Virus record (IMG/VR): IMGVR_UViG_3300009182_000039
Coordinates: 24,912-88,911 of that record
DNA length: 64,000 nt
DNA from: a virus
Direction: 5' to 3' (one strand)
Made by a program: the position numbers and the translations under genes. The notes under the pieces were generated by a model. That model was not told the origin of the DNA and searched no databases. It was given only the letters and a program-made list of their open reading frames with translations. Below, piece by piece: positions 1 to 26,911 of the stretch (the first letter of the stretch is position 1; each line of letters starts with the position of its first letter).

Positions 1-803
1 ACAATAATGGTGTACCTGTTGGCAAGAAAGATGTTTTAGATTTAATGGAAGCTGGTAAGATTCAAGTAAGTCAATTATATACAACTTGGTTAGCAGATCG
101 CTATTCTCGTACAATGAATGTTATCGACATGCCATTTTTGTTTAAAGATCATGATCATGCTGCTCGTGTATTCGACGGTGCTATCGGTGAAGAGCTTTTA
201 GGCAAACTAGAGTCCGAAGGCGGCGACAAGATCAAAGCATTAGCATTTACATACAGTGGTGGTTTCAGAACTATCCCTGCTACTAAGTCTATTGCTAGTG
301 TAGAAGATTTTAAAGGCGTTAAATTCCGTGTTAGTAGCGGTCCAGTTATCAAAGATACATTTGATGCGTTGGGTGCTGAAACTACATTCTTCCCAGTTGA
401 AGAATTAACAGAGCGTACATTGTCTGGCGAAGTAGAAGCCGGCGAATGTACATATACTCGTTACTATCCATTAAACCAAGACAAAGCGATGTCGTTTATT
501 AATGATATGGAACACAACATTTCTTGTACCAGTATCATTGTTAATCGCGAATTTTGGAATACTTTAACTGAAGAGCAACAAGCCGCTATGAAGGCTGCTG
601 GTGTAGCCAGTGCTAAGATTGAGCGTGTTGAAAGTGTTGAAGATGCTGTTCGTATTGAAGCAGAATGCCGCGAAAATGGTGTTACCATTACTAAGTGGGA
701 CGATACAGAAGTTGCTAAATTTAAAGCAATGATGACTCCAATCTATGACAAGTATACTACATACTTCTCGGATGATTTGGTTAATCGCATTAAAAATGCT
801 TAA
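1..803 (+). CDS. dctP: TRAP transporter substrate-binding protein (DctP family), 5'-truncated by the window edge
   Basis: DMPFLFKDHDHAARVFDG, GGFR, EDFKGVKFRV motifs; the reading frame is open from the window start to the listed ATG at 45. Confidence 0.85.
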   Translation, partial: NNGVPVGKKDVLDLMEAGKIQVSQLYTTWLADRYSRTMNVIDMPFLFKDHDHAARVFDGAIGEELLGKLESEGGDKIKALAFTYSGGFRTIPATKSIASVEDFKGVKFRVSSGPVIKDTFDALGAETTFFPVEELTERTLSGEVEAGECTYTRYYPLNQDKAMSFINDMEHNISCTSIIVNREFWNTLTEEQQAAMKAAGVASAKIERVESVEDAVRIEAECRENGVTITKWDDTEVAKFKAMMTPIYDKYTTYFSDDLVNRIKNA

Positions 804-821
804 TTAACAAGTATTGAAATC

Positions 822-849
822 AAAGGACTCTTCGGAGTCCTTTTTTTTT
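822..849 (+). terminator. Rho-independent terminator
   Basis: AAAGGACTC-TTCG-GAGTCCTTT hairpin (cUUCGg loop) followed by a T run. Confidence 0.9.
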
Positions 850-901
850 GGTGAGCAATTTGTATGCTAAGTATTGAACTTATATAAAGAAAAACAGCAC
901 A

Positions 902-1780
902 ATGAAAAAAATATTATTAATATTAACATTACTCGTCGGCAATGCGTGGGCATCAACAGATACAACGACTATTACGGTAGGCTACGGGCCCGGTGGTACC
1001 GACACTATCATTCGAACACTAGCGGGCGATGCTGAGGCCTATACTGATTTTAAATTTACAGTAGAAAATAAAGTAGGTGCGAATGGTGTTATCGCATTAA
1101 AATATTATTTTGCTCTGCCAGTTGGCAATAAGAATGCGTTAGGAATATCAGGCGGGCAAGTACTATTTGAAGCTATTGCTAATCCTGAAAATAATTTTAT
1201 TCAACGATTAAAATTTGTTGGCCCGGTGTTGTCTAGTCCATTAGCAATTGGTGTTAGTAGCAAGAGTCAATTTAAAACCTTAGACAAATTGTTTAATAAA
1301 AATATACCACGCCAGCGTATTAATATTGGAGTGGCCGGCGAATCACATAATATGTTAGTCGAACAACTAAAAAAATATAGTCATCACGATATACAAGCTA
1401 TACGATTTAAGGGTAGTACCGAATCGTACACCGCATTATTAGGAGGCCATATAGATATGCAATCAGATGCTTATGGCTTTTTTAAACAAAAAGAAGGCGC
1501 TGTTCGTATTTTAGGTGTAGCCGATGCTGATTCTATTGACGGAGTGCCTAGTTTACACAAATATGCGCCTACCGCAAATTTAGTTAATTTTTTTGCTGTT
1601 GCGGTAAATCGAGATACCCCGGATAATCGTAATCTAGCAGATGCGTTGACTGTTGGATTTGTAAAAGCAAATAGATACGAATATTTTAAAAATCTAGGAT
1701 ATAATGTTGATATGAATCGCAAATCTGACTATGTAGAGCGAGTAGTAGTCCCAACTTATAAAAAATGGGCGACTAAATAG
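902..1780 (+). CDS. Bug/TctC tripartite tricarboxylate transporter substrate-binding protein
   Basis: Signal peptide (MKKILLIL..AWA); GPGGTDTIIR, VENKVGANG, FKGS..ALLGGHID motifs. Confidence 0.8.
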   Translation: MKKILLILTLLVGNAWASTDTTTITVGYGPGGTDTIIRTLAGDAEAYTDFKFTVENKVGANGVIALKYYFALPVGNKNALGISGGQVLFEAIANPENNFIQRLKFVGPVLSSPLAIGVSSKSQFKTLDKLFNKNIPRQRINIGVAGESHNMLVEQLKKYSHHDIQAIRFKGSTESYTALLGGHIDMQSDAYGFFKQKEGAVRILGVADADSIDGVPSLHKYAPTANLVNFFAVAVNRDTPDNRNLADALTVGFVKANRYEYFKNLGYNVDMNRKSDYVERVVVPTYKKWATK

Positions 1781-1784
1781 CTGC

Positions 1785-2849
1785 ATGCGAATCATCGACT
1801 GCGACAGTCATTTTTTAACTTGTGATATTTACAAAAATATTGAAGAACAATATCAACAGTTTCTTCCTAGATATGTTTTTGACTCACACAATCGTGTAAT
1901 CGATATACAATTTGATCAAGACCCTTGTGCCTTCGAGGACCCTACTAACAAATTTAATAATTATTGTGACGAAGCTGGAATTAACAATATTGATATAAGA
2001 TTAAACGATTTTAAAAAATTAAAAATAGATTTACAACTACTTGCTCCGCAAGAAAGAGCAATGCGATTTAATTACTCTGTAGAAAAAAATCTTGCGGCAG
2101 CAATGGCTCATAGTTATAATATAGAAATTAAAAAAATTGTTGATCAATATCCTGATAAATTTTTTGCTGTAGCTTTAGTGCCTTTACAAGATATAGAGCT
2201 TGCTCTTAAAGAAATAAAATGGATTATTTCTAACAATTTTAAAGCCATCTATATAGATTGTGTTTCATATAACCCAGCACAATTTGCCGGATGTCCAATA
2301 TCAAATCAAGAAAGAATAGATGAAATTTTTGCTATATGCGAAGAAAAAGAATTAATAATATATCAGCATCATTTTATGCATAAAATTACATCCAATGGCA
2401 ACAATACTATTAATGATGTATTAAACGGAAACCCAATTAGCAGAGTTAGAATATCTATCTACGATTGGATAACAAATGGTACTTTTGATAGGTTTCCTAA
2501 ACTTCGGGTAATATTCAGCGAAACTGCTGAAAAATTTATAAAACCTATATTTGAAAATTTAAAAAGTGCGTATAACGAAACTAAACTAATCTGTAAAGAA
2601 GATCCAATAGTATACTTTAAAAAAAACATATTCATTACTATAGAAGTAGAAAATAAAGACAATGTTTACTACTTAATAAACCAATTTGGCAGCGACCGTT
2701 TACTATTTAATACTGATTATCCGCACGTTGACCCAGCAGGGTCAAATAAATGGAACGATGTCGACGATTTATATAAATTAGAATTATCGCAAAAAGATTT
2801 AGAAAATATCGCATTTCGCAATGCTGAAAAGCTATTTAAACTAATATAA
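1785..2849 (+). CDS. Amidohydrolase_2 family metal-dependent hydrolase/decarboxylase
   Basis: IIDCDSH at the N-terminus, FDRFPKLRVIFSE, DRLLFNTDYPH, NAEKLF at the C-terminus. Confidence 0.85.
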   Translation: MRIIDCDSHFLTCDIYKNIEEQYQQFLPRYVFDSHNRVIDIQFDQDPCAFEDPTNKFNNYCDEAGINNIDIRLNDFKKLKIDLQLLAPQERAMRFNYSVEKNLAAAMAHSYNIEIKKIVDQYPDKFFAVALVPLQDIELALKEIKWIISNNFKAIYIDCVSYNPAQFAGCPISNQERIDEIFAICEEKELIIYQHHFMHKITSNGNNTINDVLNGNPISRVRISIYDWITNGTFDRFPKLRVIFSETAEKFIKPIFENLKSAYNETKLICKEDPIVYFKKNIFITIEVENKDNVYYLINQFGSDRLLFNTDYPHVDPAGSNKWNDVDDLYKLELSQKDLENIAFRNAEKLFKLI

Positions 2850-2852
2850 ATA
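2845..2852 (+). promoter_or_regulatory. T4-like late promoter motif TATAAATA
   Basis: Exact TATAAATA upstream of the ORF at 2896. Confidence 0.5.
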
Positions 2853-2895: not shown

Positions 2896-3201
2896 ATGCT
2901 ACTAACATTCACATTAACAACAACTAAACCAGACGGTGTATTATGGTTTCCCGATTTTTCTGAAGAGAATCGGCAGATTGTTACTCGTATTAATACCTGG
3001 ACTAGTTTGCAACCAGGATTTATTAGACAAACTACCGTAGATATAGATGTAAATACCAGAGTTATGACTTTTGAATTTGATTCTGTAGAAAATTATGCTA
3101 ATTGGTTTTCATTAAGAAATCAACTACCGGAGCAAAGTATTCGATTTGCGTATATTAGAGCTAATGGCATGACCGTTACAACAAACGAAACTTTATCATA
3201 A
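2896..3201 (+). CDS. Hypothetical protein, possibly a dimeric alpha-beta barrel (ABM-like)
   Basis: Strong SD (AAGGAG); QPGFI...FDSVENYANW pattern reminiscent of ABM barrels. Confidence 0.5.
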   Translation: MLLTFTLTTTKPDGVLWFPDFSEENRQIVTRINTWTSLQPGFIRQTTVDIDVNTRVMTFEFDSVENYANWFSLRNQLPEQSIRFAYIRANGMTVTTNETLS

Positions 3202-3309: not shown

Positions 3310-4452
3310 ATGGATGCATTTGACAATTTTCCGCAAGGATATTGGTTAGTCAACAATCAAAAATTTATCAATAAGTACGAAGCATTACTTTATGCCACAA
3401 AACAAAATTTACCGGTACATTATAAATTTTTTAACGAGGTATGGGAATCGTTTGATAGATCGCAACTAGGAAATTTTAGTTTACAAGAAGTATATAAACA
3501 ACGAGCACAACAATTAAGAGACAAATACGATTATTTAATTTTATATTTTTCTGGCGGAGCAGATAGTTATAATGTGTTGCGCTCGTTTATCGATAATGGA
3601 ATTAAATTAGACGAAATATGCGTTAAGTGGTGTAATGATACATTAACAGCAAATTCAGTAATTTATAAACCAAATACAACAGAAAAATCAGCTCGTAACT
3701 ATTTGAGCGAATGGGATTACGCTATTAAGCCTGTACTCGATGATATTTCTAAAACTTATCCAGAAATTAAAATAGAAATAGTTGATTGGTTTAAAGATAG
3801 AAGTTTAATCGGTAGTGAAGAAATTTTTAAAATAGTTAATCACTGGCACGATGTTGAAGTTCCATCATTAGCTACTTGGTCTCCATCGGAATTAAAATTA
3901 ATTGACCAAGGTAAGCGAGTTGGTTCAATATATGGTATTGATAAACCTCAAATTTATTTTGAAGATGATGGGTCAGCTTATATGTTTTTTCTCGATTCTG
4001 CTACAACTATGGGTACTCCAAATCCATGTAATGTATACGGTACTGAATATTTTTACTGGGCGCCAAGTTTTCCGTTAATTACTTTTGAAACTGCTAGTGC
4101 GGCTATTGCTGCATTTAGAACTGACACTATTTTAAAATCTGCTGTGTTTGATAAAGAAGTTAAAACTAATTTAAGAAAATTTGTTGAACGAATACAAATA
4201 CAACAAAAAAATTTAAGAAGTGTACTGTATGATAATTGGACTAATCGATTTCAAGCATCAAAACCACTAGCTCTCAATCGTTCCGATAAACACTTTTGGA
4301 TTTACAGAAGTCCAGAATTAAAGAATTTTAAAAATAGTTACCAGGATATGATAAAGTTGCATACTAGCCAACTGAGACCCGATATGATTTATACTGGGCT
4401 TACTACAACTATGTATAAATTTATAGCATCTAAAAAATTTTTTATATCATGA
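3310..4452 (+). CDS. PP-loop (adenine nucleotide alpha-hydrolase) ATPase, paralog 1
   Basis: LYFSGGADS motif. Confidence 0.65.
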   Translation: MDAFDNFPQGYWLVNNQKFINKYEALLYATKQNLPVHYKFFNEVWESFDRSQLGNFSLQEVYKQRAQQLRDKYDYLILYFSGGADSYNVLRSFIDNGIKLDEICVKWCNDTLTANSVIYKPNTTEKSARNYLSEWDYAIKPVLDDISKTYPEIKIEIVDWFKDRSLIGSEEIFKIVNHWHDVEVPSLATWSPSELKLIDQGKRVGSIYGIDKPQIYFEDDGSAYMFFLDSATTMGTPNPCNVYGTEYFYWAPSFPLITFETASAAIAAFRTDTILKSAVFDKEVKTNLRKFVERIQIQQKNLRSVLYDNWTNRFQASKPLALNRSDKHFWIYRSPELKNFKNSYQDMIKLHTSQLRPDMIYTGLTTTMYKFIASKKFFIS

Positions 4453-5354
4453 CACCACAAGAATTATTAAAATTAAAAAGTCTTCCGTATGGTAGCATTC
4501 ACGCAATTTCTGATCCTTATATGGAAGCAGAAGTTAATAAAATTATTACCAAAGTTACACGAGACGGATGCTTGAATAACCCTACTATACACACTAAATT
4601 TTTAAATAGATTCTACGACTGGATTTTAGAAACAAAGAACAACACAATTACAGGATTAGAAAACTTTACTGCTAAAGTAATTACTAACGGATCAACAGAA
4701 GCATTCGATAAGTTTTATTTAAAAAATAAAACTCGTAGACTACGCTATTTTAAAGGCGAGTATATGTATCATGCCGCCGCTAGTAAAAGTTATTTTGAAT
4801 TAGCACCGCATATAGACGATGCGCCAATAGATTCCAACGATGTTATAGTAATAAGTTTACCATTTGCCGACACAGGCGGCGAGCATACAAGAATGAATGA
4901 AATATTAACTACTTGTAGCAAGTTGGATGTGCCTGTATTAATAGATTGCTGTTATTACGGTGCGTGTGCCAACTTAACTATGAATTTTAATTATAGTTGT
5001 ATTACTGATATTACCTTTAGTCTAGCAAAAAGTTTTCCTGTAGGTTTTATGCGAGTGGGCATGCGTTTAACTCGAGAAGATAACAATGATCCATTATTTG
5101 TTTATAATAAGAATAACTATGTTAATCGTATTGCAGCCGCGGTAGGATTAGAATTGCTAAATGTGTATAGTCCTGATTATAACTACAATGCCTATCAGTA
5201 TGTACAAAAATATTTTTGTAAAGAGTTAGGAGTTGAGCCTTCTAAATGTGTATTTTTTGCTACGAGTAAAGACAAATTTCCAGAATATAATCGCGGAACA
5301 GATTCAAATCGGTTGTGCTTTTCAAAATACTTGTATCAGCAAAAACTGCCGTAA
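4449..5354 (+). CDS. PLP-dependent fold-type I enzyme (aminotransferase class I/II-like)
   Basis: NGSTEAF, LIDCCY, FSLAKSF...RVG (PLP lysine motif); ATGA overlap with the upstream gene. Confidence 0.7.
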   Translation: MTPQELLKLKSLPYGSIHAISDPYMEAEVNKIITKVTRDGCLNNPTIHTKFLNRFYDWILETKNNTITGLENFTAKVITNGSTEAFDKFYLKNKTRRLRYFKGEYMYHAAASKSYFELAPHIDDAPIDSNDVIVISLPFADTGGEHTRMNEILTTCSKLDVPVLIDCCYYGACANLTMNFNYSCITDITFSLAKSFPVGFMRVGMRLTREDNNDPLFVYNKNNYVNRIAAAVGLELLNVYSPDYNYNAYQYVQKYFCKELGVEPSKCVFFATSKDKFPEYNRGTDSNRLCFSKYLYQQKLP

Positions 5355-5356: not shown

Positions 5357-6040
5357 TTATTTTTGTTTAGCATCATCTAAGTATTTTTCCCACAGTGGTA
5401 ACAAACAGTTGTCGTATGATTTTTTAACTCCGATTTCATCTAACCATTTGTATACTTCAGGTGTATTTGAATGTTCTTTAATCGTGACTGCCGTTTCGTT
5501 GGCCGGTAGCACATCAATAACAGCAGTATATATATTTGTAATACTATTATTTTGCGCCCAGTGAGGAATATATCCGTTAGTGTCATATACAACACCATCT
5601 TCAAAAATATACTGATCATCATCAAAGTACAAATAAGGAGTACTGTCGTGTATTATTGGCAGAACAATCCTACGGCAATATTTAAATATGTTATATGGGC
5701 CATCTGTATGTCTATGAACTTTATGCCCTGGCGGTAATCTTATGATGCAAGCCCGTACAGTAGAACCATTAATTATTTTTTCTACCTGATTTAATAAATT
5801 TACCCAACTGTTTTTAAATTCTTCATTTTCGCATATATTAATATTATTAATAGTATGTAGAAAATTGTCAAGAGTTTCGGTATGATTTTGTAGCCACAAA
5901 CTATGACAATCGCTAAAATTTTTATTGACTTTACGCCTGGAATCTTGAGCCCATACCATTTCAGGTAGTTCTAATAATGGTTTTTTAATATCAGTAACAT
6001 TAAGTTTTCCTAATATCTGAACTTTCCCGTCAAGATACAT
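5357..6040 (-). CDS. Asp/Asn beta-hydroxylase-like 2OG-Fe(II) oxygenase
   Basis: LPPGHKVHRHTD...PHWAQN (HxD...H). Confidence 0.75.
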   Translation of the reverse strand: MYLDGKVQILGKLNVTDIKKPLLELPEMVWAQDSRRKVNKNFSDCHSLWLQNHTETLDNFLHTINNINICENEEFKNSWVNLLNQVEKIINGSTVRACIIRLPPGHKVHRHTDGPYNIFKYCRRIVLPIIHDSTPYLYFDDDQYIFEDGVVYDTNGYIPHWAQNNSITNIYTAVIDVLPANETAVTIKEHSNTPEVYKWLDEIGVKKSYDNCLLPLWEKYLDDAKQK

Positions 6041-7477
6041 TTAATACTCCATAGCTTTATCGTAATATTTACTAATCATTATATCTGTTAAATTTTGTTC
6101 TTTTCTTATTTTGTGTATTTTTTTGTAAGTAGAATTTAAAATAACATCGCGAGTAAACCCTAGATTTTTTAAAGACGAATAATTCCACACGCTTGGAATT
6201 CTGATTGATCTTGTTTGTTTACGATTATTTTCGCACCAAGCGTGAGCCTGTCTTTCTGTTACAAAATCTGTTTCCCAATCTGGTCCATTAAATCTGTAAC
6301 CATATTTTTCTGGTTCTTTTTCAAATTCGCTTAACCCTAATGTAGGCGCTATATACAATTTATTATAATGCCAGTCGTGTACTTTAGATTGTATTAACCA
6401 ATCGTTGGATTCTTCCCAATCTTGTTCTGTTTCTTTACCTAATCCAGCAATCATAGAAACATTAACAATAACATCATCTCCCCATGTTTCGCCAATGTAT
6501 GTTAAAAACTTTTTGTTATTCTTAGCTCCCCATCCCTTGCCAATCATAGTACACGAAAGCGGATCAAATGATTCAATTCCAAAATGACAACTAGACAATC
6601 CAGACTCAGGCAATATTTCAAGTTGCTCCGGCCATATACTTAATAAATCCATTCTAACATACCCAATAAATTCTATTTTAAACGGTAACTCTTTAGTCAT
6701 AGCATAGAATTGTTTAGTTCTTTCCCTGTGCGAGTTTAATGTATCATCTGTGATGTGATAAGCTGTGGTTCCAAATTTTTCGTAGTTAGATATAAGAGAA
6801 TCTCTAATGTTCGACATATCTTTGTTAAAATCATCTTTGTCTTTTCCAATATGTGGATACTGACAGAACTTACATTTAAAAATACAACCCCGACTAAATT
6901 CTAAAGGTAAAGATTCGCCTGGCAAAATAAAATCATTTTCAGCAAATGTCATATTACATGATTGAATATTGTATAAAGTAGTGGCGTTATAAATTTTGTT
7001 AAGTCCTGGTCCTAGCGTAAAAACAGGAGCTAGTGTGCCTTTAAAAATATAATTACAATATTCTAAAAAAGAATGTTCTGCTTCGCCATCAAATATCCCA
7101 TCTAATTTAAAATTAATTTTTTTATACCCCCCAGACATAAATCCCCTTACCCATTGGCCTCCGGCAACTATTTTAACCCAGGGAAAGTTATCCTTGATTT
7201 CATTAAGAATATCAAATATTGGTTGTTCACCTTTTGTCATTTGTTGCGGACTTTCTAGCATACAAAATGGAGAATATCCTATTACTTTTGTTTCGTGCGT
7301 TATAAACTTTTTAAACAATGTTAATCTTTGTTCACTAGTCATAAAATATAAGAACTCTAGTACTTGTGTTGAAAATCCATGTTGCCGTAGCCACCACGCA
7401 ATTTGGTATGGCCCTAAATATCTTACTTGTCGACCAGGGTCTGTATTAGTTGTTAGTATTACTACTTGCATTAGCAA
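6041..7477 (-). CDS. Cobalamin-binding-type (class B-like) radical SAM protein
   Basis: SRGCIFKCKFC (CxxxCxxC); N-terminal VAGG...GEAE B12-domain pattern; HFGIES. Confidence 0.85.
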   Translation of the reverse strand: MLMQVVILTTNTDPGRQVRYLGPYQIAWWLRQHGFSTQVLEFLYFMTSEQRLTLFKKFITHETKVIGYSPFCMLESPQQMTKGEQPIFDILNEIKDNFPWVKIVAGGQWVRGFMSGGYKKINFKLDGIFDGEAEHSFLEYCNYIFKGTLAPVFTLGPGLNKIYNATTLYNIQSCNMTFAENDFILPGESLPLEFSRGCIFKCKFCQYPHIGKDKDDFNKDMSNIRDSLISNYEKFGTTAYHITDDTLNSHRERTKQFYAMTKELPFKIEFIGYVRMDLLSIWPEQLEILPESGLSSCHFGIESFDPLSCTMIGKGWGAKNNKKFLTYIGETWGDDVIVNVSMIAGLGKETEQDWEESNDWLIQSKVHDWHYNKLYIAPTLGLSEFEKEPEKYGYRFNGPDWETDFVTERQAHAWCENNRKQTRSIRIPSVWNYSSLKNLGFTRDVILNSTYKKIHKIRKEQNLTDIMISKYYDKAMEY

Positions 7478-18886: not shown

Positions 18887-18913
18887 CGTGAAGTGCCTTT
18901 ATTTGTACAGTAA

Positions 18914-18931
18914 TATTTATACCTATAAATA
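18914..18931. promoter_or_regulatory. Palindromic divergent late promoters TATTTATA-CC-TATAAATA
   Basis: Two exact TATAAATA motifs in inverted orientation between divergent genes. Confidence 0.75.
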
Positions 18932-18947
18932 TGACAAAGAGAAAAAC

Positions 18948-20000
18948 ATGGACTTTACACCTGGAAAACCAATCAGAACTTATGACGAAAATGGATCATG
19001 GAGAGATTGGAGTACCGACGAATTAGTTGGCGCTAAATTAAATTATTTGCCAGGATGGAAGTGTGGTGCTGGTGTCGATAGTCTGTATATCGACATGGAC
19101 GGTGGTGTGTGGACTGCTAGTTGTCGGGTAGGCGGCAAATTAGGCAATGTATGGGAAAAATTTAAAAGTCCTGAAGATTGGATTAACTGTACAAGAAATG
19201 TCTGTAGCTGCGGAGCTGACCTTTTTATTCCCAAAGTAAGTAAAATAGAATTTAAAAATTTACTTCGCAAAGGTCAAAATTTATCTCCCCAGAATGATTT
19301 GCGTGACAACGAGCAAACAGAGTTTATTGCGTTGGAAAGGACCCACGCTAGTACACAAAAACAAGTTTATTGGGAAATTGGTCGTAGATGTAACTACGAC
19401 TGCGGCTATTGTTGGCCTTGGATACATAATAACACAGATCCACATAAAACATTAGAAGAACTAATGAAAGCTACACATAATATTGAAGAAAATTTTACAC
19501 AAGGTGAAAGTGTAAACTTTATTATTAGTGGCGGTGAGCCTACTGTAAACAAACACTTTTTAGAGTGGTTGCGTTACTTGAATAGTTGCGGGCATCATGT
19601 TAGTTTACATAGTAATGGTTCTAGACTGCCTGAATATTACAAAGAAATTATTCATTTTGGAGATTTAAATTTAAGCGTACACTTTGAATTTTACGACAAG
19701 GAAAAATTTTTAAAAGTAGTAGAAGCTGTTACTGCTGAAAAAGTTGCTAATAAAAACCGAGGAGTTGGGCATCTAGAAATTAAGTTTATGATGCCTCCGC
19801 ATAATCGTGAAGAAGCATTAGAATTAGAAGCAGAACTTAAAAATATTCCTGAATTTATCAACTACTGTACTTGGGCTATCGTGCCTATTCGTGGTAGTTT
19901 AGATAATAATAAGATTACTGATATGACTCGTGGTGCTGGCAGCGAAATTATGACGGGATATACTAAAGAAGATTATTTGTTATTTGGCGACCGTAAGTAA
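18948..20000 (+). CDS. Radical SAM protein with an N-terminal SPASM/twitch-like Cys domain; start moved to the ATG at 18948
   Basis: CGAG...ASC...C...CSC precedes CNYDCGYC and GGEPT. Confidence 0.85.
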   Translation: MDFTPGKPIRTYDENGSWRDWSTDELVGAKLNYLPGWKCGAGVDSLYIDMDGGVWTASCRVGGKLGNVWEKFKSPEDWINCTRNVCSCGADLFIPKVSKIEFKNLLRKGQNLSPQNDLRDNEQTEFIALERTHASTQKQVYWEIGRRCNYDCGYCWPWIHNNTDPHKTLEELMKATHNIEENFTQGESVNFIISGGEPTVNKHFLEWLRYLNSCGHHVSLHSNGSRLPEYYKEIIHFGDLNLSVHFEFYDKEKFLKVVEAVTAEKVANKNRGVGHLEIKFMMPPHNREEALELEAELKNIPEFINYCTWAIVPIRGSLDNNKITDMTRGAGSEIMTGYTKEDYLLFGDRK

Positions 20001-21371
20001 TTTACATTCGTTATAAAAATCAACCATTTCAGGAAATGTAGCAGCAAAATTTAAATTTCTTCTTGCTGTAAGTTTATCAATATTTTCCGCAAACTCTTTC
20101 TTAGCTTGATCATTTTTATCAGGATTTAGAATACCATTTTTAATTGTTTTAAGAAATTCTACATAAGCTGGCCATGGTCCGTATGGCGAATATTTAGAAT
20201 GATCGTTAATTGCGACCATTTCTTTCTTTAATATTTCGATGCTTTCATCAATGTATCTGGCATACTCGGGCGGCAAGATATAAGGATCTAACCATTGCGG
20301 ATAAACAATTTGGTTGGGTCTAAGATGAACCCTGCGTCCTGTCTTTTTCTGTAGTTCAATGACAAATTTAAAAAAGTTAGGTAAATCACTAATACACAAT
20401 GCGTTTAACGCTATTTGAAAATTAAAAATAACTCTAAATTGTGCTGGGTCGTGTTCTTGTAAAAATACTAAAAACTTATCTATGTTAGCTGTCATTAATT
20501 GCCAATCGGTGCCGGTCCTAATAAATTCAGCACGATCGCCAATTGCTTCACAACTAACATTAAAATCTAATTTCAATTGCTTTGAACTTGCAATCTTCTT
20601 GACTGTATCTAGAAATCTATTGTAAAATTTAATTGGCGTATTAAAATTACTTACAATGCTTATGTTACGCCAATAGTCGGTTGTATTTGTGTTATAAAAA
20701 TCTATTATTCTGTTGCTATACAAATAAAATTTTTCAATAATTAGTGGTTCACCACCGATAAAGTTAATTGCCGATGCGGTTGGCCCGGCACTATTGTCAA
20801 ACCATGCCCACCATAAATCTTCATAAACAGTATCTGTAATTTTTGGAAGCTCGCGTTCAACGTCTTGTATACGAATTTCGCCATATTTTAAATTTTCGGC
20901 TGCCCATTGACTACTATAATGATGATGGCAGTACATACATTTTAAATCACATGTATTACCTAAAGAAATTTCTATCATCCTAACAGATTCTAAATTTACG
21001 AGAGTGTCTATTTCTTCAGGGGTAAGAGATTTTAATTTTTCTTTTAACTGTTCTTTAGATAAGCCAGGCCATACTTGATTTTTATTTACAAAATTAACAA
21101 AACTATCCATTCGCGACCGTGGACCACGACCGCCGCTTGCTTCAATACTCCAACAAGAATTGCAATCCTTATGTTGTACTCCTGTAAGTAAACTACGTCT
21201 AACATCTACTATTGGAATAAATTTATTGAATAATTCTATCCCTGTTTTAAAATCTTCTTCTGCTAATGTATTCGATCTGGCTCTACAACAATACCGTAAC
21301 TCGTTTCGAGATAGATTTAATACAGGATAGTCCCAAGCAAAAATACAAATAGTATCTTCAATATTATTCAT
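19980..21371 (-). CDS. Radical SAM protein with an N-terminal twitch-like domain
   Basis: CIFAW...CC...CNSCW then NTCDLKCMYC and GGEPL. Confidence 0.85.
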   Translation of the reverse strand: MNNIEDTICIFAWDYPVLNLSRNELRYCCRARSNTLAEEDFKTGIELFNKFIPIVDVRRSLLTGVQHKDCNSCWSIEASGGRGPRSRMDSFVNFVNKNQVWPGLSKEQLKEKLKSLTPEEIDTLVNLESVRMIEISLGNTCDLKCMYCHHHYSSQWAAENLKYGEIRIQDVERELPKITDTVYEDLWWAWFDNSAGPTASAINFIGGEPLIIEKFYLYSNRIIDFYNTNTTDYWRNISIVSNFNTPIKFYNRFLDTVKKIASSKQLKLDFNVSCEAIGDRAEFIRTGTDWQLMTANIDKFLVFLQEHDPAQFRVIFNFQIALNALCISDLPNFFKFVIELQKKTGRRVHLRPNQIVYPQWLDPYILPPEYARYIDESIEILKKEMVAINDHSKYSPYGPWPAYVEFLKTIKNGILNPDKNDQAKKEFAENIDKLTARRNLNFAATFPEMVDFYNECKLLTVAK

Positions 21372-22090
21372 TGTGTTAATTTTGTTATAAAATTCTTTAC
21401 TTCTTCGGCATTAATTATAAATTGATAAGTATCAACTGGAAGCTGTTTCTGTACCGTTACATCTAGAATACTTATAGGCATCTGTAATATCTTAGACAAA
21501 TCTTCTATTGCTGTTTCATAATGAATCACTGGTAAATTTGTTAAATTAAATATTCTTAATATACCGTCAAATCCTTTCAAATTCATGTACGCCCAATAAA
21601 TTGTTCTGAATCCCTCTCCATCGATCATCACCGAAGAATTTAGTATACCGTTTCCGTAAAAACTATTCCAATTGTGTGTTTTATGTGCTACAGCATGACT
21701 TAATAGTTGTTTTTTTATATCATTTCGTTTAAGTATCATAAATTCAAAACCACAATCATGTAATACTTTTAATATTTTATCTAAATGGGGTAACAAATAA
21801 TCGTAAGGAAATAATTTAACTACAAGAGGTTGTTCTGGATCACCTTCCATAAGAACAGATATTACATTGTTTATACGATCAGTTAACAACAGATTTCCGT
21901 CTACCTGCTCAGAGTGTTGTATGGCTTTATCATTAGTTAATATGGGTTTGTAAGGTTGATTCTCAGTAAATGGTTCAAGCATATCATAAACATGACAGTT
22001 TACATATTGTTTAATTGTTCCTGCAATAATTTGTGCTACGTATTGACTGCCAGACCGAGGGGTTCCTATAATACACCATCGATTATTCAT
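21368..22090 (-). CDS. Sulfotransferase-like (Stf0/P-loop) protein; ATG at 22090 preferred as start
   Basis: IGTPRSGSQY 5'-PSB-like loop; LKR...QLLS; IHYE. Confidence 0.65.
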   Translation of the reverse strand: MNNRWCIIGTPRSGSQYVAQIIAGTIKQYVNCHVYDMLEPFTENQPYKPILTNDKAIQHSEQVDGNLLLTDRINNVISVLMEGDPEQPLVVKLFPYDYLLPHLDKILKVLHDCGFEFMILKRNDIKKQLLSHAVAHKTHNWNSFYGNGILNSSVMIDGEGFRTIYWAYMNLKGFDGILRIFNLTNLPVIHYETAIEDLSKILQMPISILDVTVQKQLPVDTYQFIINAEEVKNFITKLTQ

Positions 22091-23039
22091 CAACAAATTC
22101 CTTTGTGCTCATAATATCAAAATTGCAATGGCACATTTTTTTAGTACACCGCACAGGTTGTGTAGGTAAACTTAAATCTGGGTCAACAATATTACCTAGC
22201 AAGCCGCCTTCTTTACACCAACCTCGAAAGATGGCTCCGCGTTGATCCACAATTAATTGTTCGACGCCAGCATAACAATCCCACCCTGACCAGTCATTTG
22301 CTTTTTCATTGATAAACCTATGGGCACTTGCTACCAAAGAAGTATCATTTGGATACAACATTTTCATAGCGCCTCTGTAATAATCAAATGACTTATCAAA
22401 TTTTATATATTTGCTAATTAATTCGTGCTGGCGATCGATAATTTGTTTTTGTTCTGGTGTGTAGTCATATAACACTTCGCCAAAATCGTGTATTAGAGGC
22501 TGGAGGGCCATGGAAATGTTACCAAGAAGTTTTATTTTGTCTGCTATTTCATAGCAGTAGTCAAATTTTTCAGGACTCATCATAATATTAACATGAGTTC
22601 TTACAGTCTTGTTCAATATTTTTACAACTTCAATGAAATGTTCTGAATCTCCAAATTCTGGATGGAAACTTAAACATACATGATCAAAATACTGTTTGTT
22701 TTCTTCCCAATATCTTAAAGTTCTGGATCCGTTAGAAATTAAACCTACTCTAACTCCTTGTTCTGTACAAAACTGACAAATATCAATAAAATGTTTGTAC
22801 AATGTAACTTCGCCGCCAGTAAATTCAAAATAAAGTTTTTTATTGGGGTGTGTTTCTTTAACTTTTAAGATAAAATTTTTAATAGTCTCTGGAGTCGGCC
22901 ACGGATTAGACCCATCGTGTAAATTTGCTGGACAATAACTGCAGCTAAAATTACAAGTATTACCCAAACACCAGTTAACTACAAACCAGTCTGTATTAGT
23001 TTCTTGAGCGTGCACTAATTTAAAATATTTTTTCTTCAT
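22083..23039 (-). CDS. Radical SAM protein with a C-terminal SPASM/twitch-like domain
   Basis: CNFSCSYC, TGGEVT, then CYAG...GWC...C...CHC. Confidence 0.85.
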   Translation of the reverse strand: MKKKYFKLVHAQETNTDWFVVNWCLGNTCNFSCSYCPANLHDGSNPWPTPETIKNFILKVKETHPNKKLYFEFTGGEVTLYKHFIDICQFCTEQGVRVGLISNGSRTLRYWEENKQYFDHVCLSFHPEFGDSEHFIEVVKILNKTVRTHVNIMMSPEKFDYCYEIADKIKLLGNISMALQPLIHDFGEVLYDYTPEQKQIIDRQHELISKYIKFDKSFDYYRGAMKMLYPNDTSLVASAHRFINEKANDWSGWDCYAGVEQLIVDQRGAIFRGWCKEGGLLGNIVDPDLSLPTQPVRCTKKMCHCNFDIMSTKEFVDE

Positions 23040-23047
23040 TATAATTT

Positions 23048-23590
23048 TTATTTAATTCCGATTAACATATATCTGGTAAATTTCCATTCTGGATACACAA
23101 AGCGTAATTCGCCTCGGTAAACAATTTCCGACAACGGATAATGATTTGCAAAATCGGATATAGTTGTAGAATGTACAACATGGTCATCGTGCGGCATATT
23201 ATTGCCTTGTAGTATAACTCTAGTACCTTTAGGGATACAGTCAAACCATTCCATGCTTTCAAAATGTTCTGTACTAGTATTTATAATTAAATCTGGTGTG
23301 CCCTTTACACCTTGATTACAATCTAATGTAAAGGCTTTGAACTGCCATTCTTTAATTACCCAATTTTCATTAATCACATCAGCAATCGCTTCGCATGACG
23401 GATCAATGTCAAAACTTTCTATACGGTCAACTTTAAATCGTTCTCTACTAAGCAATAAAAATCCTAATACACCGTACCACCCACCGTAGATATGTGTTAG
23501 TTCACTAGTCCAGCCGAGTTTTTCTAATTCTTGGCACAACCAAAGTTTGCTATCAATTTGTCCATTAGAAAACGCATCTTTATTGAACAT
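23048..23590 (-). CDS. Class I SAM-dependent methyltransferase-like protein; ATG at 23590
   Basis: IYGGWYG motif I, SFDIDP, DLIINTSTEH; TAATG coupling. Confidence 0.7.
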   Translation of the reverse strand: MFNKDAFSNGQIDSKLWLCQELEKLGWTSELTHIYGGWYGVLGFLLLSRERFKVDRIESFDIDPSCEAIADVINENWVIKEWQFKAFTLDCNQGVKGTPDLIINTSTEHFESMEWFDCIPKGTRVILQGNNMPHDDHVVHSTTISDFANHYPLSEIVYRGELRFVYPEWKFTRYMLIGIK

Positions 23591-24528
23591 TACCACCCCT
23601 CTAACTGACGGATAACATCAATTTCTCGAACCATAATACCTTTATTATGCCAGTCGTTTCGATAATGTGCTTTAAAAAATTTACTTGCTGTTTCATCTAA
23701 CATGGTAATAGGTAAGTCTAACTGAGTCAATAAATCTGCGGCTATTCTGCCGGCAATTTGTTCTGGATTGTGTCCGTCGATGGTGTCGTATATTGTTTTA
23801 AGCGCATCAAAGTTTTGAACTTCTTTGTAATCCCAAGTAGGATTAAGCATTAACATATAAGTACCCATTCGTGCGCCTAATATAGCCCAAACCCCATTTT
23901 CTACATCACGGCCAACATTTTGCCAGATGGTTAAATGATCAAGATTTCGACTGTTCACTTTATTTTTAAATTCTGTAACACTTGGTTTAACTCCGCGGTT
24001 TAAACACATCTTTACGCCTTCTCTAAATCCCGACCGCCATGCTTGATAGGGAGTAGCATTAGGATAAGTGGTACTATAACAATCGTACATAGCAATATAG
24101 TTAGGATAGAAACAAAACTCTACATCATTTGCCGCTGTGCCATCGCTGTTTTCGTGAGTTTTCATATTGTAAATAAAATCTTTAGTCCAACAACTTAGTC
24201 CGCCATTGCCATACATTAATCCGTTAATGATATTACGAGCTCGCCACCGGAAAACGCAATCTTTATCGTTATCATCGATAGAAAGAGCAAGGTCAAAAAA
24301 GTTATCGTCAGGAACATTGTCGCCATCGATCAATACAAATCGATCTGTAATAGCAGCATCGGCGGCGGCTTTATGTGCTGCATCTGAACCTTTAACTCCG
24401 TCAACACGCATTGCCCAAGGCACCATATTTTTAATTTTAACCCAATTTTCTTCTTTATTGGGTTCATCATATGTCAAGTATATGCAGTCTAATTCTGCTA
24501 TATCTATTTTGTTCACCTTAAACTCCAT
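23590..24528 (-). CDS. GT-A glycosyltransferase-like protein
   Basis: FVLIDGDN DxD motif; YGNGG. Confidence 0.55.
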   Translation of the reverse strand: MEFKVNKIDIAELDCIYLTYDEPNKEENWVKIKNMVPWAMRVDGVKGSDAAHKAAADAAITDRFVLIDGDNVPDDNFFDLALSIDDNDKDCVFRWRARNIINGLMYGNGGLSCWTKDFIYNMKTHENSDGTAANDVEFCFYPNYIAMYDCYSTTYPNATPYQAWRSGFREGVKMCLNRGVKPSVTEFKNKVNSRNLDHLTIWQNVGRDVENGVWAILGARMGTYMLMLNPTWDYKEVQNFDALKTIYDTIDGHNPEQIAGRIAADLLTQLDLPITMLDETASKFFKAHYRNDWHNKGIMVREIDVIRQLEGW

Positions 24529-24830
24529 TTAATATTTGGTTCCGTTTTTTTAACTACTATACTGACATCGGTGGGATGACACGGAATACCAGTTTTGGCA
24601 GGGTACAATCTTTTTACTATCGATGTATCGAGCACAACTATGTTATTATCAACTACTCTTATGTGTGTAGGAGGATTAACATATACTTCTCTAGTAATGT
24701 CTATATAATTACCTGGCAAATCCTCTTGGCTATAAAAAAGTGGCTGGCCTTGATCATCATAATACAGCCTATATAGAATAGGTTTTGGTTCTGCGGGTGT
24801 TAATGCCGCCCAAAATTCTTGTTCATTCAT
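24513..24830 (-). CDS. Hypothetical protein
   Basis: ORF overlapping both neighbours in the operon. Confidence 0.55.
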   Translation of the reverse strand: MNEQEFWAALTPAEPKPILYRLYYDDQGQPLFYSQEDLPGNYIDITREVYVNPPTHIRVVDNNIVVLDTSIVKRLYPAKTGIPCHPTDVSIVVKKTEPNIKWSLR

Positions 24831-25110
24831 CGTGTAAGCCGTGATGTGGTCGGTCGATATCTTGGAATAAGCGTTTTTCCTGTGCTGTTAGTTTATCTTT
24901 TCCTTTGGCCGTTTCGTTATGCCGAGGATTAGAGCACATAGGACAATGCGGGATGCCGCAATCCATAGCATGATGTTTAGCCAAGCGATGCGGTTCCTCG
25001 ATTGGTTTAGTAAGCCCATGAGACTTAGCAATTCTTAATTGTTTTTTAATTGCGGTCCAGGCTTTGTGTAAACGCTTACTATGTTTAATCTTATCTTCAT
25101 CTTTACTCAT
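24823..25110 (-). CDS. Small basic protein with a CGIPHCPMC putative Zn-binding motif
   Basis: K/H-rich; C-x4-C-x2-C. Confidence 0.55.
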   Translation of the reverse strand: MSKDEDKIKHSKRLHKAWTAIKKQLRIAKSHGLTKPIEEPHRLAKHHAMDCGIPHCPMCSNPRHNETAKGKDKLTAQEKRLFQDIDRPHHGLHDE

Positions 25111-25825
25111 TTACTAGATCCTTTATATGATAATGTACTAAACCCCACTGTGCTACTGTGTTAATTCTAACTCCAGGATTAGTATGTTCGCATACTAATT
25201 CCCTACTCCAATCTTCTGAAATAATAGGTATCATATGTTTTTTCATATGAACTATAGTCGGCCCTGCTGGTAAGGTAACTTGTTCAACGCCTATAATAAC
25301 TGAAGCTAATCCATAAACTACATCAGTAGTAGGTATTTCGTCTGGGAATTTTAATAATGTTTTATAACTTTTCCAATTTTCAAATATATTACGAACCAAT
25401 GTAAAAAATTCTTTAGCTAAGTCACTCGCTTCCCAATATGTGATGGCATTGTAAACATCCGGCAAGTTATTGTTATCAAATATTTTACGATAGACCCTTG
25501 ATTTACCAGGTTGATCATAAAAATCTCTACACCCTTGGCTGATGACTACATTGCGATTGGAAAATAATTCCCACCAATGATCGATAGGACTAGCGCACCA
25601 CATATCAGCTTCTAACTTAATAGTTTTTTTATAAGGGCTTGCCTCGTAACATTGCCAGTCATTGGCAAAACCTTTAAGTTTTCCATAGGGCAACATATCT
25701 TCTGTTAAAATTGTAATATTAGCACTAGGATGCCACGCTAATATACTATCCGCTAATTGTTTAGCACATTTAACATAGACATCGCCTATAGCTGGAATTA
25801 AATAACCTTGATCAACTAGCAACAA
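25103..25825 (-). CDS. Glycosyltransferase-like (GT8-like) protein
   Basis: SPYKKTIKLEAD (ExD variant of DxD), HMK; resembles 25812..26606. Confidence 0.55.
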   Translation of the reverse strand: MLLVDQGYLIPAIGDVYVKCAKQLADSILAWHPSANITILTEDMLPYGKLKGFANDWQCYEASPYKKTIKLEADMWCASPIDHWWELFSNRNVVISQGCRDFYDQPGKSRVYRKIFDNNNLPDVYNAITYWEASDLAKEFFTLVRNIFENWKSYKTLLKFPDEIPTTDVVYGLASVIIGVEQVTLPAGPTIVHMKKHMIPIISEDWSRELVCEHTNPGVRINTVAQWGLVHYHIKDLVNE

Positions 25826-26606
25826 TATCTCCTAAATGCTTTTTACCCATGGCATGAAAATCTTGTGCCAAAGTTATATAGCGTGGTTTTAGATCAGGAG
25901 TTAAAAAATCTACGCGATAGTTATCTTCGCTAACTTTTGTTAATTTATGTGCCGGAGTAACTGATGCTAAACCCCAAGGAATATCAGTGTAATTAAGTAT
26001 GTGTCCGTTAACAATGCCTAACGCTATACTTAACGCAAAATCGTTGCGATATGTTGGTCTATTAACACCATATAAATTTTTAAAGTGTTGCCAATTATTT
26101 TTTATCATAGCCATACAATCAAAAATCATTTTAGCTTCTGTAGAACGTCTAAACATCATTACAGTTGCCCACCACATAGGCATATTATAATTTCCAAAAT
26201 TGTTAAGCTCGTCAAAATTATCTTGCTTGACTACATCGTACGCTGTTTTGTGTGCTACAAAATTTTCTTTTATATTTAAAATTTTTTTTAATTCGCTACT
26301 GGCTACAACATAATCAGCATCTAACACCAAAGTTTGACCCCACGGCGTTAACTCATATGCGTTAACTCGATTGCCGTTATACCATGTTACATTTTCTGCT
26401 TGATCTTCAAATTTTCTAGAATAGTTGCCTTCGGGAATAGCCGGGATTACCTGTTCAAAAAAATAGTTATGAGGAATTGTTTGATCTGTTACTACTGCTA
26501 CTGGTAATTGTAAATGTCTGCGGATATTTTTAGCTGACCAATTAGCCATGGCAAGATAATCTATATGTTCATTATTAAAAGCAAATATTAATACACCAGT
26601 TGTCAT
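25812..26606 (-). CDS. Glycosyltransferase-like (GT8-like) protein
   Basis: TPWGQTLVLDADY DxD, RND, H-x-MGK. Confidence 0.65.
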   Translation of the reverse strand: MTTGVLIFAFNNEHIDYLAMANWSAKNIRRHLQLPVAVVTDQTIPHNYFFEQVIPAIPEGNYSRKFEDQAENVTWYNGNRVNAYELTPWGQTLVLDADYVVASSELKKILNIKENFVAHKTAYDVVKQDNFDELNNFGNYNMPMWWATVMMFRRSTEAKMIFDCMAMIKNNWQHFKNLYGVNRPTYRNDFALSIALGIVNGHILNYTDIPWGLASVTPAHKLTKVSEDNYRVDFLTPDLKPRYITLAQDFHAMGKKHLGDIVAS

Positions 26607-26911
26607 CTATTTTTGCTAAGTTGTTCGTGTTCTTCAAACCATAACTTCATAGTTTCTTGCCAGCGGGTTTTTGCTAAATTTAATAATTCTTTATAATCAA
26701 CTATAACTGGAGTTTCATACAAATCAAATAAGTATAATACTTGTTGACCTTCTGATGCTTTAAGTATGTTAATCAATTCGGGCCCAGCTTTAAACATTCC
26801 ACCATTATAAGCAAAAATAAGTTTGCTTTGATATTTTTCTTTGAGTGTCCGTTTGGCTGCCGCATGTTCAAAACGACTACGGCCGTGAGCAACTAAATTA
26901 TCAGTATCCAT
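26603..26911 (-). CDS. Hypothetical protein
   Basis: First ORF after the sigma70-like promoter; ATGA-coupled to the GT-like gene. Confidence 0.55.
   Translation of the reverse strand: MDTDNLVAHGRSRFEHAAAKRTLKEKYQSKLIFAYNGGMFKAGPELINILKASEGQQVLYLFDLYETPVIVDYKELLNLAKTRWQETMKLWFEEHEQLSKNR

Follow-up and report, generated by a model that had tools for sequence, protein, structure and literature searches.

The DNA analysed here (the window, 64,000 nucleotides) runs from base 24,912 to base 88,911 of an 88,911-base viral contig, IMG/VR record IMGVR_UViG_3300009182_000039, and its left-hand part carries an island of modifying-enzyme genes that has a non-structural region on one side and the tail-fibre and baseplate genes on the other. 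The island is ~32 kb long (window −4,900 to 26,911); it starts 4.9 kb upstream of the window, which holds the larger share of it, and the window edge mimics its left border. The upstream island genes encode a short-chain dehydrogenase/reductase (SDR; epimerase/dehydratase) resembling dTDP-glucose 4,6-dehydratase or LegB, a 465-residue glycosyltransferase-like (GT-like) protein that is a paralogue of the GT-A proteins described below, and two more PP-loop ligases, with two conserved flank genes beyond them. Positions 1-26,911 contain 33 open reading frames (ORFs) of at least 95 amino acids (aa) with hardly any intergenic space (Table 1), and the only small ones encode conserved proteins of 95-105 aa. 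Two PP-loop families, which we call PP-loop-L (~390 aa; three island copies, two of them just upstream of the window) and PP-loop-S (~305 aa; two island copies), matter most in what follows, together with a desaturase-like membrane protein and a group of GT-A-like transferases.

An alignment-based scan of IMG/VR with the PP-loop-L family gave 27 loci, among them the close relatives G001-G003; a scan with a single PP-loop-L protein found nothing. In G001-G003 the island occupies the same position between flanks that are 68-98% identical, and collinearity (at 55-98% identity) extends over flank genes, fibre genes and the block 22083-26911 on the fibre side, while the middle differs. In distant loci, at 26-48% identity, the genes follow one order on one strand: a fibre gene, a small protein, w25812 (the gene at 25812-26606 in the window), two uncharacterised genes, two or three GT-A genes, a methyltransferase-like gene, two further uncharacterised genes, PP-loop-S, a GNAT-like gene and the desaturase, with a homologue of the upstream flank gene (w-6292-like) a few kb further on. 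Such a minimal operon occupies, for example, L101 76-10816 and L075 1453-10807, and its unassigned proteins are of 233, 324, 175 and 212 aa. Order and strand are fixed even in such distant loci, so the island is an old ~15-kb operon-like frame in inflated form; many related phage contigs have kept this frame next to their fibre genes. A second scan was seeded with the desaturase only (His boxes HRxxxH, HRxHH and HNNHH). A PP-loop-S gene was present in 77 of the best 80 among at least 576 viral stretches, at a median gap of 730 nt (≤1.5 kb in 75, same strand in 75); the same 80 loci held GNAT-like gene b in 35 cases, GT-A paralogues in 33 (74 copies) and w25812 in 16. The desaturase and PP-loop-S are an almost obligate gene pair. 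The first-pass annotation, a reading of the letters and ORFs made before this analysis, had named random co-occurrence as the outcome that would count against it; the core genes in fact co-occur far beyond chance, beside fibre genes. Homologues of the w25812 protein number 2,796 or more at E ≤ 0.001, with the best 120 at 62-100% identity, and its gene is a lineage core gene, not a variable accessory. Part of the frame is also found in a cultured phage: the fibre-side block of Ralstonia phage RsoM2USA (343.8-kb genome) encodes homologues of the proteins at 26603, 25812 and 25103, two proteins of the 23590 type, a twitch-domain radical S-adenosylmethionine (radical SAM) enzyme and a methyltransferase-like protein, with an SDR nearby.

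In this lineage the frame is interrupted and enlarged by self-contained cassettes, placed in either orientation and varying from one close relative to the next. They hold AsnB-synthetase-shaped ligases, B12-binding and other radical SAM enzymes, 2-oxoglutarate (2OG), Rieske and TauD oxygenases, an amidohydrolase, a pyridoxal phosphate (PLP) enzyme and carboxylate-binding proteins. Eight genes occur in this phage alone when the four close genomes are compared, namely the seven of segment 4449-11335 (the PLP enzyme, an AspH-like oxygenase, two B12-binding radical SAM enzymes, two 2OG-like proteins and one TctC protein) and the gene at 21368-22096. Island length varies from 16 to 32 kb among close relatives; that of G002 (~16 kb) is without binding proteins, Rieske and TauD oxygenases and amidohydrolase. 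The twitch radical SAM gene and the second GT-like gene adjoin in RsoM2USA, and ~25 kb of variable DNA separates them here. Rather than the single pathway of ~32 genes first proposed, the locus is thus a conserved ~15-kb frame with cassettes that turn over among close relatives.

Table 1. Features of the island and the adjoining structural genes, in window coordinates.
Feature	Position	Strand	Basis or remark
DctP-type TRAP solute-binding protein	1..803	+	Pfam DctP E 3.7e-46 (full ORF); NCBIfam TRAP_S1
TctC/Bug-type solute-binding protein 1, signal peptide	902..1780	+	Pfam TctC 33.9 bits, cut-off 27
Amidohydro_2, aromatic-acid decarboxylase type	1785..2849	+	Pfam; TAAATA-N5-ATG start
Conserved 101-aa protein	2896..3201	+	Recurs just upstream of PP-loop-L genes in several relatives
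PP-loop-L3, asparagine-synthetase-shaped amide-ligase family	3310..4452	+	Paralogy, SGGxDS; no Pfam match
Short fold-type-I PLP-enzyme-like protein	4449..5354	+	Unique among four close genomes
Asp/Asn beta-hydroxylase-family 2OG oxygenase	5357..6040	-	PF05118 (Asp_Arg_Hydrox) 26.7 bits, cut-off 22.6
B12-binding-type radical SAM 1	6041..7477	-	Pfam Radical_SAM; paralogue of 9794-11335
2OG/cupin-like candidate	7446..8057	-	HxD...H motif alone; homologues in loci L017, L018
Weak 2OG-Fe(II) oxygenase candidate	8054..8818	-	2OG-FeII_Oxy_3 E 0.048, HxD...H motif; TAAATA-N5-ATG
TctC/Bug-type solute-binding protein 2, signal peptide	8835..9758	-	Pfam TctC E 2.7e-18
B12-binding radical SAM 2	9794..11335	-	Pfam Radical_SAM and B12-binding; TAAATA-N4-ATG, divergent from Rieske gene
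Rieske [2Fe-2S] oxygenase	11381..12223	+	Pfam Rieske E 5e-8; TAAATA-N5-ATG
PP-loop-S1, QueC-like short PP-loop ATPase	12204..13130	-	Pfam QueC 24.5 bits, cut-off 22, motif region
GNAT-like acyltransferase candidate a	13120..13698	-	Atlas nearest clusters GNAT, 0.96; GSGIGR motif; TAAATA-N4-ATG
Delta9-type membrane desaturase-like di-iron protein, 272 aa	13722..14540	+	Pfam FA_desaturase 58.7 bits, cut-off 29.7
PP-loop-S2, translationally coupled to desaturase	14540..15460	+	Pfam, paralogy
GNAT-like candidate b	15457..16056	+	Motif; homologues between or beside PP-loop-S and desaturase
Asp/Asn hydroxylase-family oxygenase (Asp_Arg_Hydrox)	16053-16661	+	Pfam
TauD/TfdA-family oxygenase	16658-17539	+	Pfam; nearest solved PlaO1, E 4e-8
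200-aa protein, no family assigned	17536-18138	+	Third of coupled trio
2OG/cupin-like candidate	18122..18886	-	HxD...H motif; homologues in 18 of 80 desaturase-seeded loci
Radical SAM with N-terminal extra domain	18888..20000	+	Pfam
Twitch-domain radical SAM	19980..21371	-	NF033640 209 bits, cut-off 170; homologue in RsoM2USA fibre-side block
Sulfotransferase-like candidate	21368..22096	-	GTPRSGS motif only; no Pfam match; unique to this phage
Radical SAM	22083..23039	-	Pfam; 83-88% identity in close relatives
Methyltransferase-like protein, frame member	23048..23596	-	Motifs only
GT-A-fold transferase, frame member	23590..24528	-	Nearly invariant DGD; AlphaFold 2 (AF2) model, pLDDT 69
Conserved 105-aa and 95-aa proteins	24513..25110	-	24513-24830, 24823-25110
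GT-A-like paralogue, frame gene	25103-25825	-	N-terminal and DxD motifs
w25812 core protein, frame gene	25812-26606	-	GT-like by N-terminal and DxD motifs
Small conserved protein, frame gene	26603-26911	-	Frame position
Tail-fibre genes flanking island	26980..29887	-	Including a Peptidase_G2/intramolecular-chaperone domain protein
4,919-aa fibre or baseplate protein	30078-44837	-	After tail-fibre genes

The original inventory of about 32 genes, mostly modifying enzymes, is largely borne out: nearly all 33 ORFs fall in the families it named, except that three genes encode solute-binding proteins and not enzymes. Pfam or NCBIfam confirms all five radical SAM proteins, and Pfam confirms one Rieske oxygenase, one desaturase and one amidohydrolase. 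The motif SGGxDS is present in each of the three PP-loop ATPases (3310-4452, 12204-13130 and 14540-15460), and a family profile matches the PLP enzyme to a class I/II aminotransferase (3if2, E 1.6e-5). Of six proposed 2OG/cupin oxygenases, three are clear by Pfam, whereas the others show a weak match or the HxD...H motif; of three GT-like proteins, a GT-A fold identifies the one at 23590-24528, whereas the other two were called from N-terminal and DxD motifs, as were the sulfotransferase-like and methyltransferase calls from motifs of their own. The reported absence of a non-ribosomal peptide synthetase/polyketide synthase (NRPS/PKS) core and of a precursor also holds, since Pfam and NCBIfam found no NRPS/PKS domain, carrier protein, recognition element or precursor peptide in any window ORF. 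PHROGs gave no match for nine unassigned ORFs and only weak radical SAM family hits for 19980-21371; relaxed Pfam searches gave nothing credible for nine of ten such ORFs, the exception being a weak 2OG-FeII_Oxy_3 match at 8054-8818. Among 19 island families compared with hhalign, the only hidden paralogy was that between PP-loop-L and PP-loop-S, between the two AspH proteins, and between 25103 and 25812. Sequence searches of the PDB returned nothing useful for PP-loop-L, PP-loop-S, the twitch radical SAM protein, the 4449-5354 protein by itself or the GT-like profile.

The contig is a fragment of an uncultured freshwater/lake T4-type jumbo myophage with a genome of roughly 350 kb or more. This assignment follows from the T4 baseplate genes, the genome size of RsoM2USA, the completeness of relatives and the length of contigs with island homologues. 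Genes for gp25, a gp5-like hub, gp46/47, SegE and T4 baseplate domains lie at window 48-64 kb; CheckV puts the contig at ~17% complete and related contigs of 80-133 kb at 23-39%; and contigs carrying homologues of island proteins reach 345-375 kb. Cultured relatives are RsoM2USA, which has the sole GenBank-phage homologues of two island proteins, Pseudomonas phage PA5oct (52.8% identity to the gp46 homologue) and Atu_ph07 (43-47%, as for Phosso). A megablast search of the island against GenBank phages gave no match. The 19 listed runs with this DNA are freshwater and lake metagenomes from 15 studies; six runs, each under its own study, contain 78-98% of the sampled words, and three of the six are flagged as possible sources of the DNA. 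Joints seen in read mapping had sides of at most 24 letters and were distrusted, except for one same-length diverged stretch in run X7 (104-letter side); uncovered stretches in X7 were not taken as absence. An assembly chimera or a captured host fragment, which had also been named as a possible undoing of the earlier proposal, is extremely improbable. The G+C content of window 2000-8000 (30-32%) is slightly lower than that of the structural region (36-40%), as a foreign insert might show, but the same junctions and order recur in at least three independent IMG/VR phage contigs from other samples, the six runs come from separate studies, the families are phage-restricted and phage start motifs lie inside the block.

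The start motif in question, TAAATA followed by 3-8 bases and ATG, stands before 16 contig ORFs that are 70 aa or longer; TAAATA itself occurs 128 times on the two strands of the contig. Seven TAAATA-N4-6-ATG starts belong to island units (−2569, 1785, 8818, 11335, 11381, 13698 and 13722), and two other starts of this type belong to the gp25-like baseplate gene and to ORF 62396, which adjoins a gene with a T4 baseplate domain. At 11335-11381 and 13698-13722 the motifs form divergent, back-to-back TAAATA-N4-5-ATG pairs, 45 and 23 bases apart. The T4 late promoter is TATAAATA; because the TAAATA motif resembles it, the island units are probably transcribed late, with the virion genes and from very short leaders. 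A scan with sigma70 and terminator consensus sequences showed no enrichment over shuffles.

At the left end of the window, the DctP gene starts 192 nt upstream of window base 1 and is followed by a terminator-like strong hairpin with a T-run (822-843). DctP is 90-92% identical in G001/G003, where its neighbouring genes are 46-65% identical and the adjacent amidohydrolase only 46-47%. From its N-terminus, DctP has no signal peptide, whereas both TctC proteins do (that of TctC 1 is hydrophobic and ends AWA), and the TctC 2 gene is preceded by a sigma70-like promoter of its own, TTGACT-17-TATTAT, as well as by a Shine-Dalgarno sequence. A Pfam census of relatives' islands (loci L003-L029) found TctA (the large membrane subunit of the tripartite tricarboxylate transporter, TTT), a Gram-negative porin, NifU and TerC, as well as PhyH oxygenases, FkbM methyltransferases and cytidylyltransferases. 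Because the TctC proteins are exported and relatives encode TctA and a porin, carboxylate uptake is more likely for them than a role in the island chemistry, and the earlier suggestion that the co-encoded binding proteins recognise the island's product finds no support. The solved structures nearest to Amidohydro_2 are 2,3-dihydroxybenzoate, salicylate and gamma-resorcylate decarboxylases and ACMSD (E 4.5e-12). In the 101-aa protein next to it a C-terminal E-T-x-S is invariant (four of five members read NET[ILV]S), and this protein could be a partner or scaffold of PP-loop-L; complex prediction of PP-loop-L3 with this neighbour scored 0.00, a value that speaks neither for nor against a partnership.

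These genes bring into view an unlikely but serious alternative, in which unrelated auxiliary metabolic genes have collected in the island as in a hypervariable dump. Each would help the infected cell by itself, say through uptake of carboxylates, conversion of aromatic acids or an effect on membrane fluidity, and they would have no product in common. Cassettes with their own start signals in both orientations, the eight genes unique to this phage, the twofold range of island length, the exported TctC proteins with one sigma70-like promoter, the TctA, porin and NifU added by relatives and the resemblance of Amidohydro_2 to aromatic-acid decarboxylases all agree with it. A dump would not be expected, however, to keep core order and strand across loci at 26-48% identity, to pair a desaturase with a PP-loop protein nearly without exception, or to share its start motif with a gp25-like baseplate gene, and its main families are without cellular counterparts, unlike typical host-derived metabolic genes.

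The PP-loop-L family is present in 3-5 copies per phage. Its homologues (at least 319) are all metagenomic and unnamed; its Atlas clusters are 100% viral; it has no Pfam or NCBIfam match, and 120 listed homologues carry no Pfam domain. Neither PP-loop-L nor PP-loop-S has a match in 50,697 GenBank phage records. In an AF2 model of a PP-loop-L paralogue (pLDDT 89.5), the best structural match is the AsnB synthetase domain (1ct9; Z 10.7, 283 aligned residues), followed by beta-lactam synthetase (Z 8.9), TsnB9 (8.4) and carbapenam synthetase (7.9). Over its full 392 aa the model corresponds to just the synthetase half, with no glutaminase domain, and SGGxDS is invariant in the family. On the basis of this fold, PP-loop-L probably works like an ATP-dependent, carboxylate-adenylating amide ligase, a putative one that lies outside PF00733 by sequence.

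PP-loop-S has 204 or more metagenomic homologues, and its profile matches QueC, NAD synthetase and LarE only in the ATP-motif region. A pattern scan of 185,579 species genomes found just two fragments of PP-loop-motif length, and the family appears to have no real cellular homologue and to be confined to phage and metagenome data. Identification with QueC was rejected because the TIGR00364 matches reach 19.8 and 20.7 bits where the cut-off is 150, and extend over just ~65 residues at the PP-loop. In two distant relatives (L101 12523-13590; L075 12315-13385) the minimal operon is followed by yet another type of SGGxDS protein, the third, ~355 aa long. Hypermodification of phage DNA or transfer RNA (tRNA) by the PP-loop and radical SAM enzymes, for example along a 7-deazaguanine-type route, is very unlikely. 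The weak QueC matches of PP-loop-S and a GTP cyclohydrolase I in one relative's locus would accord with this, but the QueC match of 19.8 bits covers the ATP-binding motif only, and the late-type starts, the membrane desaturase partner and the GT-A neighbours do not fit. No TGT or DpdA match was found in the 88.9-kb contig, which is weak evidence given that it represents ~17% of the genome.

The true start of the desaturase-like gene is at 13722 (TAAATA-N5-ATG). Its His boxes HRYVSH, HRGSHH and HNNHH are kept in 26 aligned members, and hydrophobic segments are present; against the NCBIfam DesA equivalog it scores 62 bits, with a cut-off of 400. The protein could be a hydroxylase or act on another lipid substrate. 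Loci L017 and L018 each contain eight desaturase paralogues in 20 kb, with divergent second His boxes (HINHH, HLHHH, HRKHH and others). A 152-aa His-box membrane protein in L101 (16511-16972) and L075 (14636-15094) looks like a second, hydroxylase-like di-iron enzyme.

Among the cassette enzymes, the PLP-like family comprises 492 representative clusters, with an invariant Asp (D166) and a nearly invariant S-x-S-K (S191/S193/K194). The radical SAM protein at 6041-7477 has partial NCBIfam matches to PhpK and to C-methyltransferase families of ribosomally synthesised and post-translationally modified peptides (RiPPs), and the best partial match of 9794-11335 is TIGR04072, a lipid-biosynthesis B12-binding radical SAM family (E 3e-20, far below cut-off). 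The Rieske protein weakly matches SxtT and carnitine monooxygenase in the PDB, in the Rieske domain only. In the trio 16053..18138, stops and starts overlap. The radical SAM proteins at 18888-20000 and 22083-23039 are domain-permuted, the N-terminal ~100 residues of one matching the C-terminal ~100 of the other. We rejected 18888-20000 as a prokaryotic viperin; the match covers only the first ~100 of ~260 positions of the pVip model (Fe-S cluster region).

Enzymes of this kind could also make a free small molecule independently of NRPS/PKS, an option we consider quite unlikely. The PP-loop ligases would adenylate carboxylates that DctP and TctC bind or take up, and would couple them to amines or acyl groups; oxidation and methylation would follow, giving products such as lipo-amino acids, catecholamides or siderophore-like compounds. 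All three binding-protein families, of the tripartite ATP-independent periplasmic (TRAP) and TTT systems, bind carboxylates, which counts for this option, as do the resemblance of PP-loop-L to glutaminase-less AsnB-family amide and lactam synthetases, the lack of a signal peptide on DctP, the GNAT-like genes beside PP-loop-S genes and the proximity of the TauD protein to PlaO1, a natural-product oxygenase. Yet carrier protein, thioesterase, exporter and known scaffold enzyme were not found among the window ORFs, the frame is dominated by GT-A-fold proteins and stands beside fibre genes, and a lytic phage's use for such a compound is hard to see.

On the fibre side, the model of the 23590-24528 protein has the glycocin glycosyltransferases SunS and ThuS as its top Foldseek matches (E 4e-4, TM ~0.3), and its VIA matches include B4GALNT1 (Z 10.3), STIV A197 (9.7), SunS (9.3) and A64R (8.4). 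The 95-aa protein (24823-25110) is basic, with a Cys/His cluster, HHAMDCG..C..C..PR, and a KDKLTAQEKR motif, and is ~58% identical even in distant loci (L006, L012 and L017; BLAST local matches). ARAGORN calls a tRNA-Ile with anticodon AAT at 24767-24840 (+), antisense to the junction of 24513-24830 and 24823-25110; it may be a false call. Thr, Asn, Ser and Gly abound in the 4,919-aa ORF, which has no collagen-like repeats, and parts of it match a 2,540-aa protein of RsoM2USA.

Direct, RiPP-like modification of virion proteins would place the island's target in these very neighbours, through hydroxylation, methylation and cross-linking of fibre or baseplate proteins, with the AsnB-like ligases forming isopeptide or lactam links as lasso-peptide cyclases do. 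The late-type starts shared with baseplate genes, the position beside the fibre genes and the Thr/Asn/Ser-rich giant protein, the Asp/Asn hydroxylase-family enzymes and the peptide glycosyltransferases SunS and ThuS as best Foldseek matches point this way. We nevertheless hold it to be decidedly improbable: leader-peptide recognition element, protease and precursor gene were not found among the window ORFs, the SunS/ThuS matches are weak, and a membrane desaturase does not fit the scheme.

The reading that we favour, at somewhat less than an even chance, is that late-expressed enzymes tailor a surface structure of glycan or glycolipid type, carried by the virion or by the infected cell. We prefer it because the island combines nucleotide-sugar-type enzymes (SDR, PLP enzyme, GT-A transferases and methyltransferase-like protein) with acyl and amide chemistry (GNAT-like and PP-loop enzymes) and a membrane acyl-chain enzyme, and because it lies beside receptor-binding genes and several of its units have the start motif of the gp25-like gene. 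In this reading the frame would activate and transfer sugars, add N-acyl groups, amidate carboxylates, methylate, and oxidise acyl chains, and would thereby build and tailor the structure. The latter would be shown on virion fibres or on the envelope of the infected cell, and cassette turnover would diversify it, much as bacterial surface-glycan loci vary. A more specific version is doubtful, although we give it some weight: the conserved operon may be a virus-specific pathway for a lipid-bearing glycoconjugate that is made late and displayed on the fibres or in the outer membrane of the infected cell, in which the PP-loop and di-iron proteins form an undescribed partnership and the swappable cassettes yield strain-specific variants that set host range or block rival phages.

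Several observations weigh against late surface tailoring. The membrane Delta9-type desaturase fits lipid and not sugar chemistry, so the glycan/glycolipid idea that unifies the island is one that we infer. Enzyme assignments are at family or fold level, many of them far below curated equivalog cut-offs. Late timing was deduced from the start motif. A lake metatranscriptome contains eight short identical contigs, which could derive from carried-over DNA, on five island genes, namely DctP (three of the eight), 8054-8818, 9794-11335 (5' end), the Rieske gene and the junction at 17362-17573. The position next to tail-fibre genes, noted from the start, holds here and in relatives but is common rather than universal, because in G004 a distance of at least ~50 kb separates the PP-loop/desaturase cluster from the fibre/w25812 block and a search of GenBank phages found neither PP-loop family in RsoM2USA. 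Finally, the loci were found with members of the kit as queries, which makes co-occurrence partly a matter of design; the desaturase-seeded scan controls for the PP-loop pair only.

Late surface tailoring parallels what has been proposed for the host recognition cluster (HRC) of pelagimyophages, whose fibre-side hypervariable islands carry glycosyltransferases and radical SAM cassettes (Zaragoza-Solas et al. 2020, PMC7029224). In pelagimyophages and cyanomyophages the HRC is a 34-45 kb non-syntenic island at T4-type tail-fibre genes with conserved flanks; like the present island, it has glycosyltransferases, lipopolysaccharide-type sugar genes, transport genes, Asp/Asn hydroxylases and radical SAM cassettes that differ between near-identical genomes (PMC7029224). 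The features shared here are the position at fibre genes, non-syntenic content between syntenic flanks, and glycosyltransferase, sugar and radical SAM genes. In contrast, our phage is of another lineage, and the fixed operon, the PP-loop/desaturase pair and the phage-only PP-loop ligases are not reported in PMC7029224. The role proposed for the HRC, a change of the host O-chain against coinfection, was likewise inferred (PMC7029224).

For single components, PP-loop-L shares SGGxDS and the fold, over ~280 residues, with the glutaminase-less AsnB-family synthetases (beta-lactam and carbapenam synthetases, TsnB9 and lasso-peptide cyclases), but it has no significant Pfam or NCBIfam match, has N- and C-terminal elements of its own and is multiplied within each phage. 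Cyanomyophages reportedly encode Delta9 lipid desaturases, said to have been described by Roitman et al. in 2018. A stearoyl-CoA desaturase occurs in fonsimyophages (PMC7029224). As in those cases, a Delta9-type His-box membrane desaturase is found here in a T4-type aquatic phage; unlike them, it is compact (~255-272 aa), tied to PP-loop and GNAT-like genes in a glycosyltransferase-rich operon, and amplified to eight copies in some relatives.

Bacterial surface-glycan loci (O-antigen, capsule and the Campylobacter flagellin glycosylation island) are paralogue-rich and cassette-variable between strains, and combine an SDR dehydratase, an aminotransferase, an N-acyltransferase, PP-loop amidotransferases, methyltransferases and several glycosyltransferases, as here. 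The present contig differs in having no flippase, polymerase, NeuB or cytidylyltransferase, and oxygenases and radical SAM enzymes are far commoner in it; the sugar amidotransferase model TIGR03573 scores no more than 12.8 bits, at the PP-loop motif alone; the lack of a NeuB match applies to a fragment of the genome, and cytidylyltransferases are present in two relatives' loci. Virus-encoded virion glycosylation (PBCV-1 A64R, STIV A197), for which mycobacteriophages offer a further comparison, likewise places GT-A-fold transferases beside structural genes, but the module here also has lipid-type and amide-forming enzymes. Our literature search found no paper describing the fixed core, the near-obligate PP-loop/desaturase pair or either of the phage-only PP-loop families; the genes go unmentioned in Kavagutti 2019. 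The 'Moraphages' (PMC12619734) appear to be a separate lineage.

Fibre-side variable islands are known in marine T4-type phages, and their chemistry is not known to have been worked out. The present comparison adds a fixed enzymatic core within such islands, in a widespread group of giant freshwater phages, and thereby a small, defined set of genes for expression and assay, with RsoM2USA as a cultured entry to the fibre-side transferase block. If the product is a free compound, it would represent a new virus-encoded, NRPS-independent route; if it decorates virions or the host surface, it would add a new layer of host-range control.

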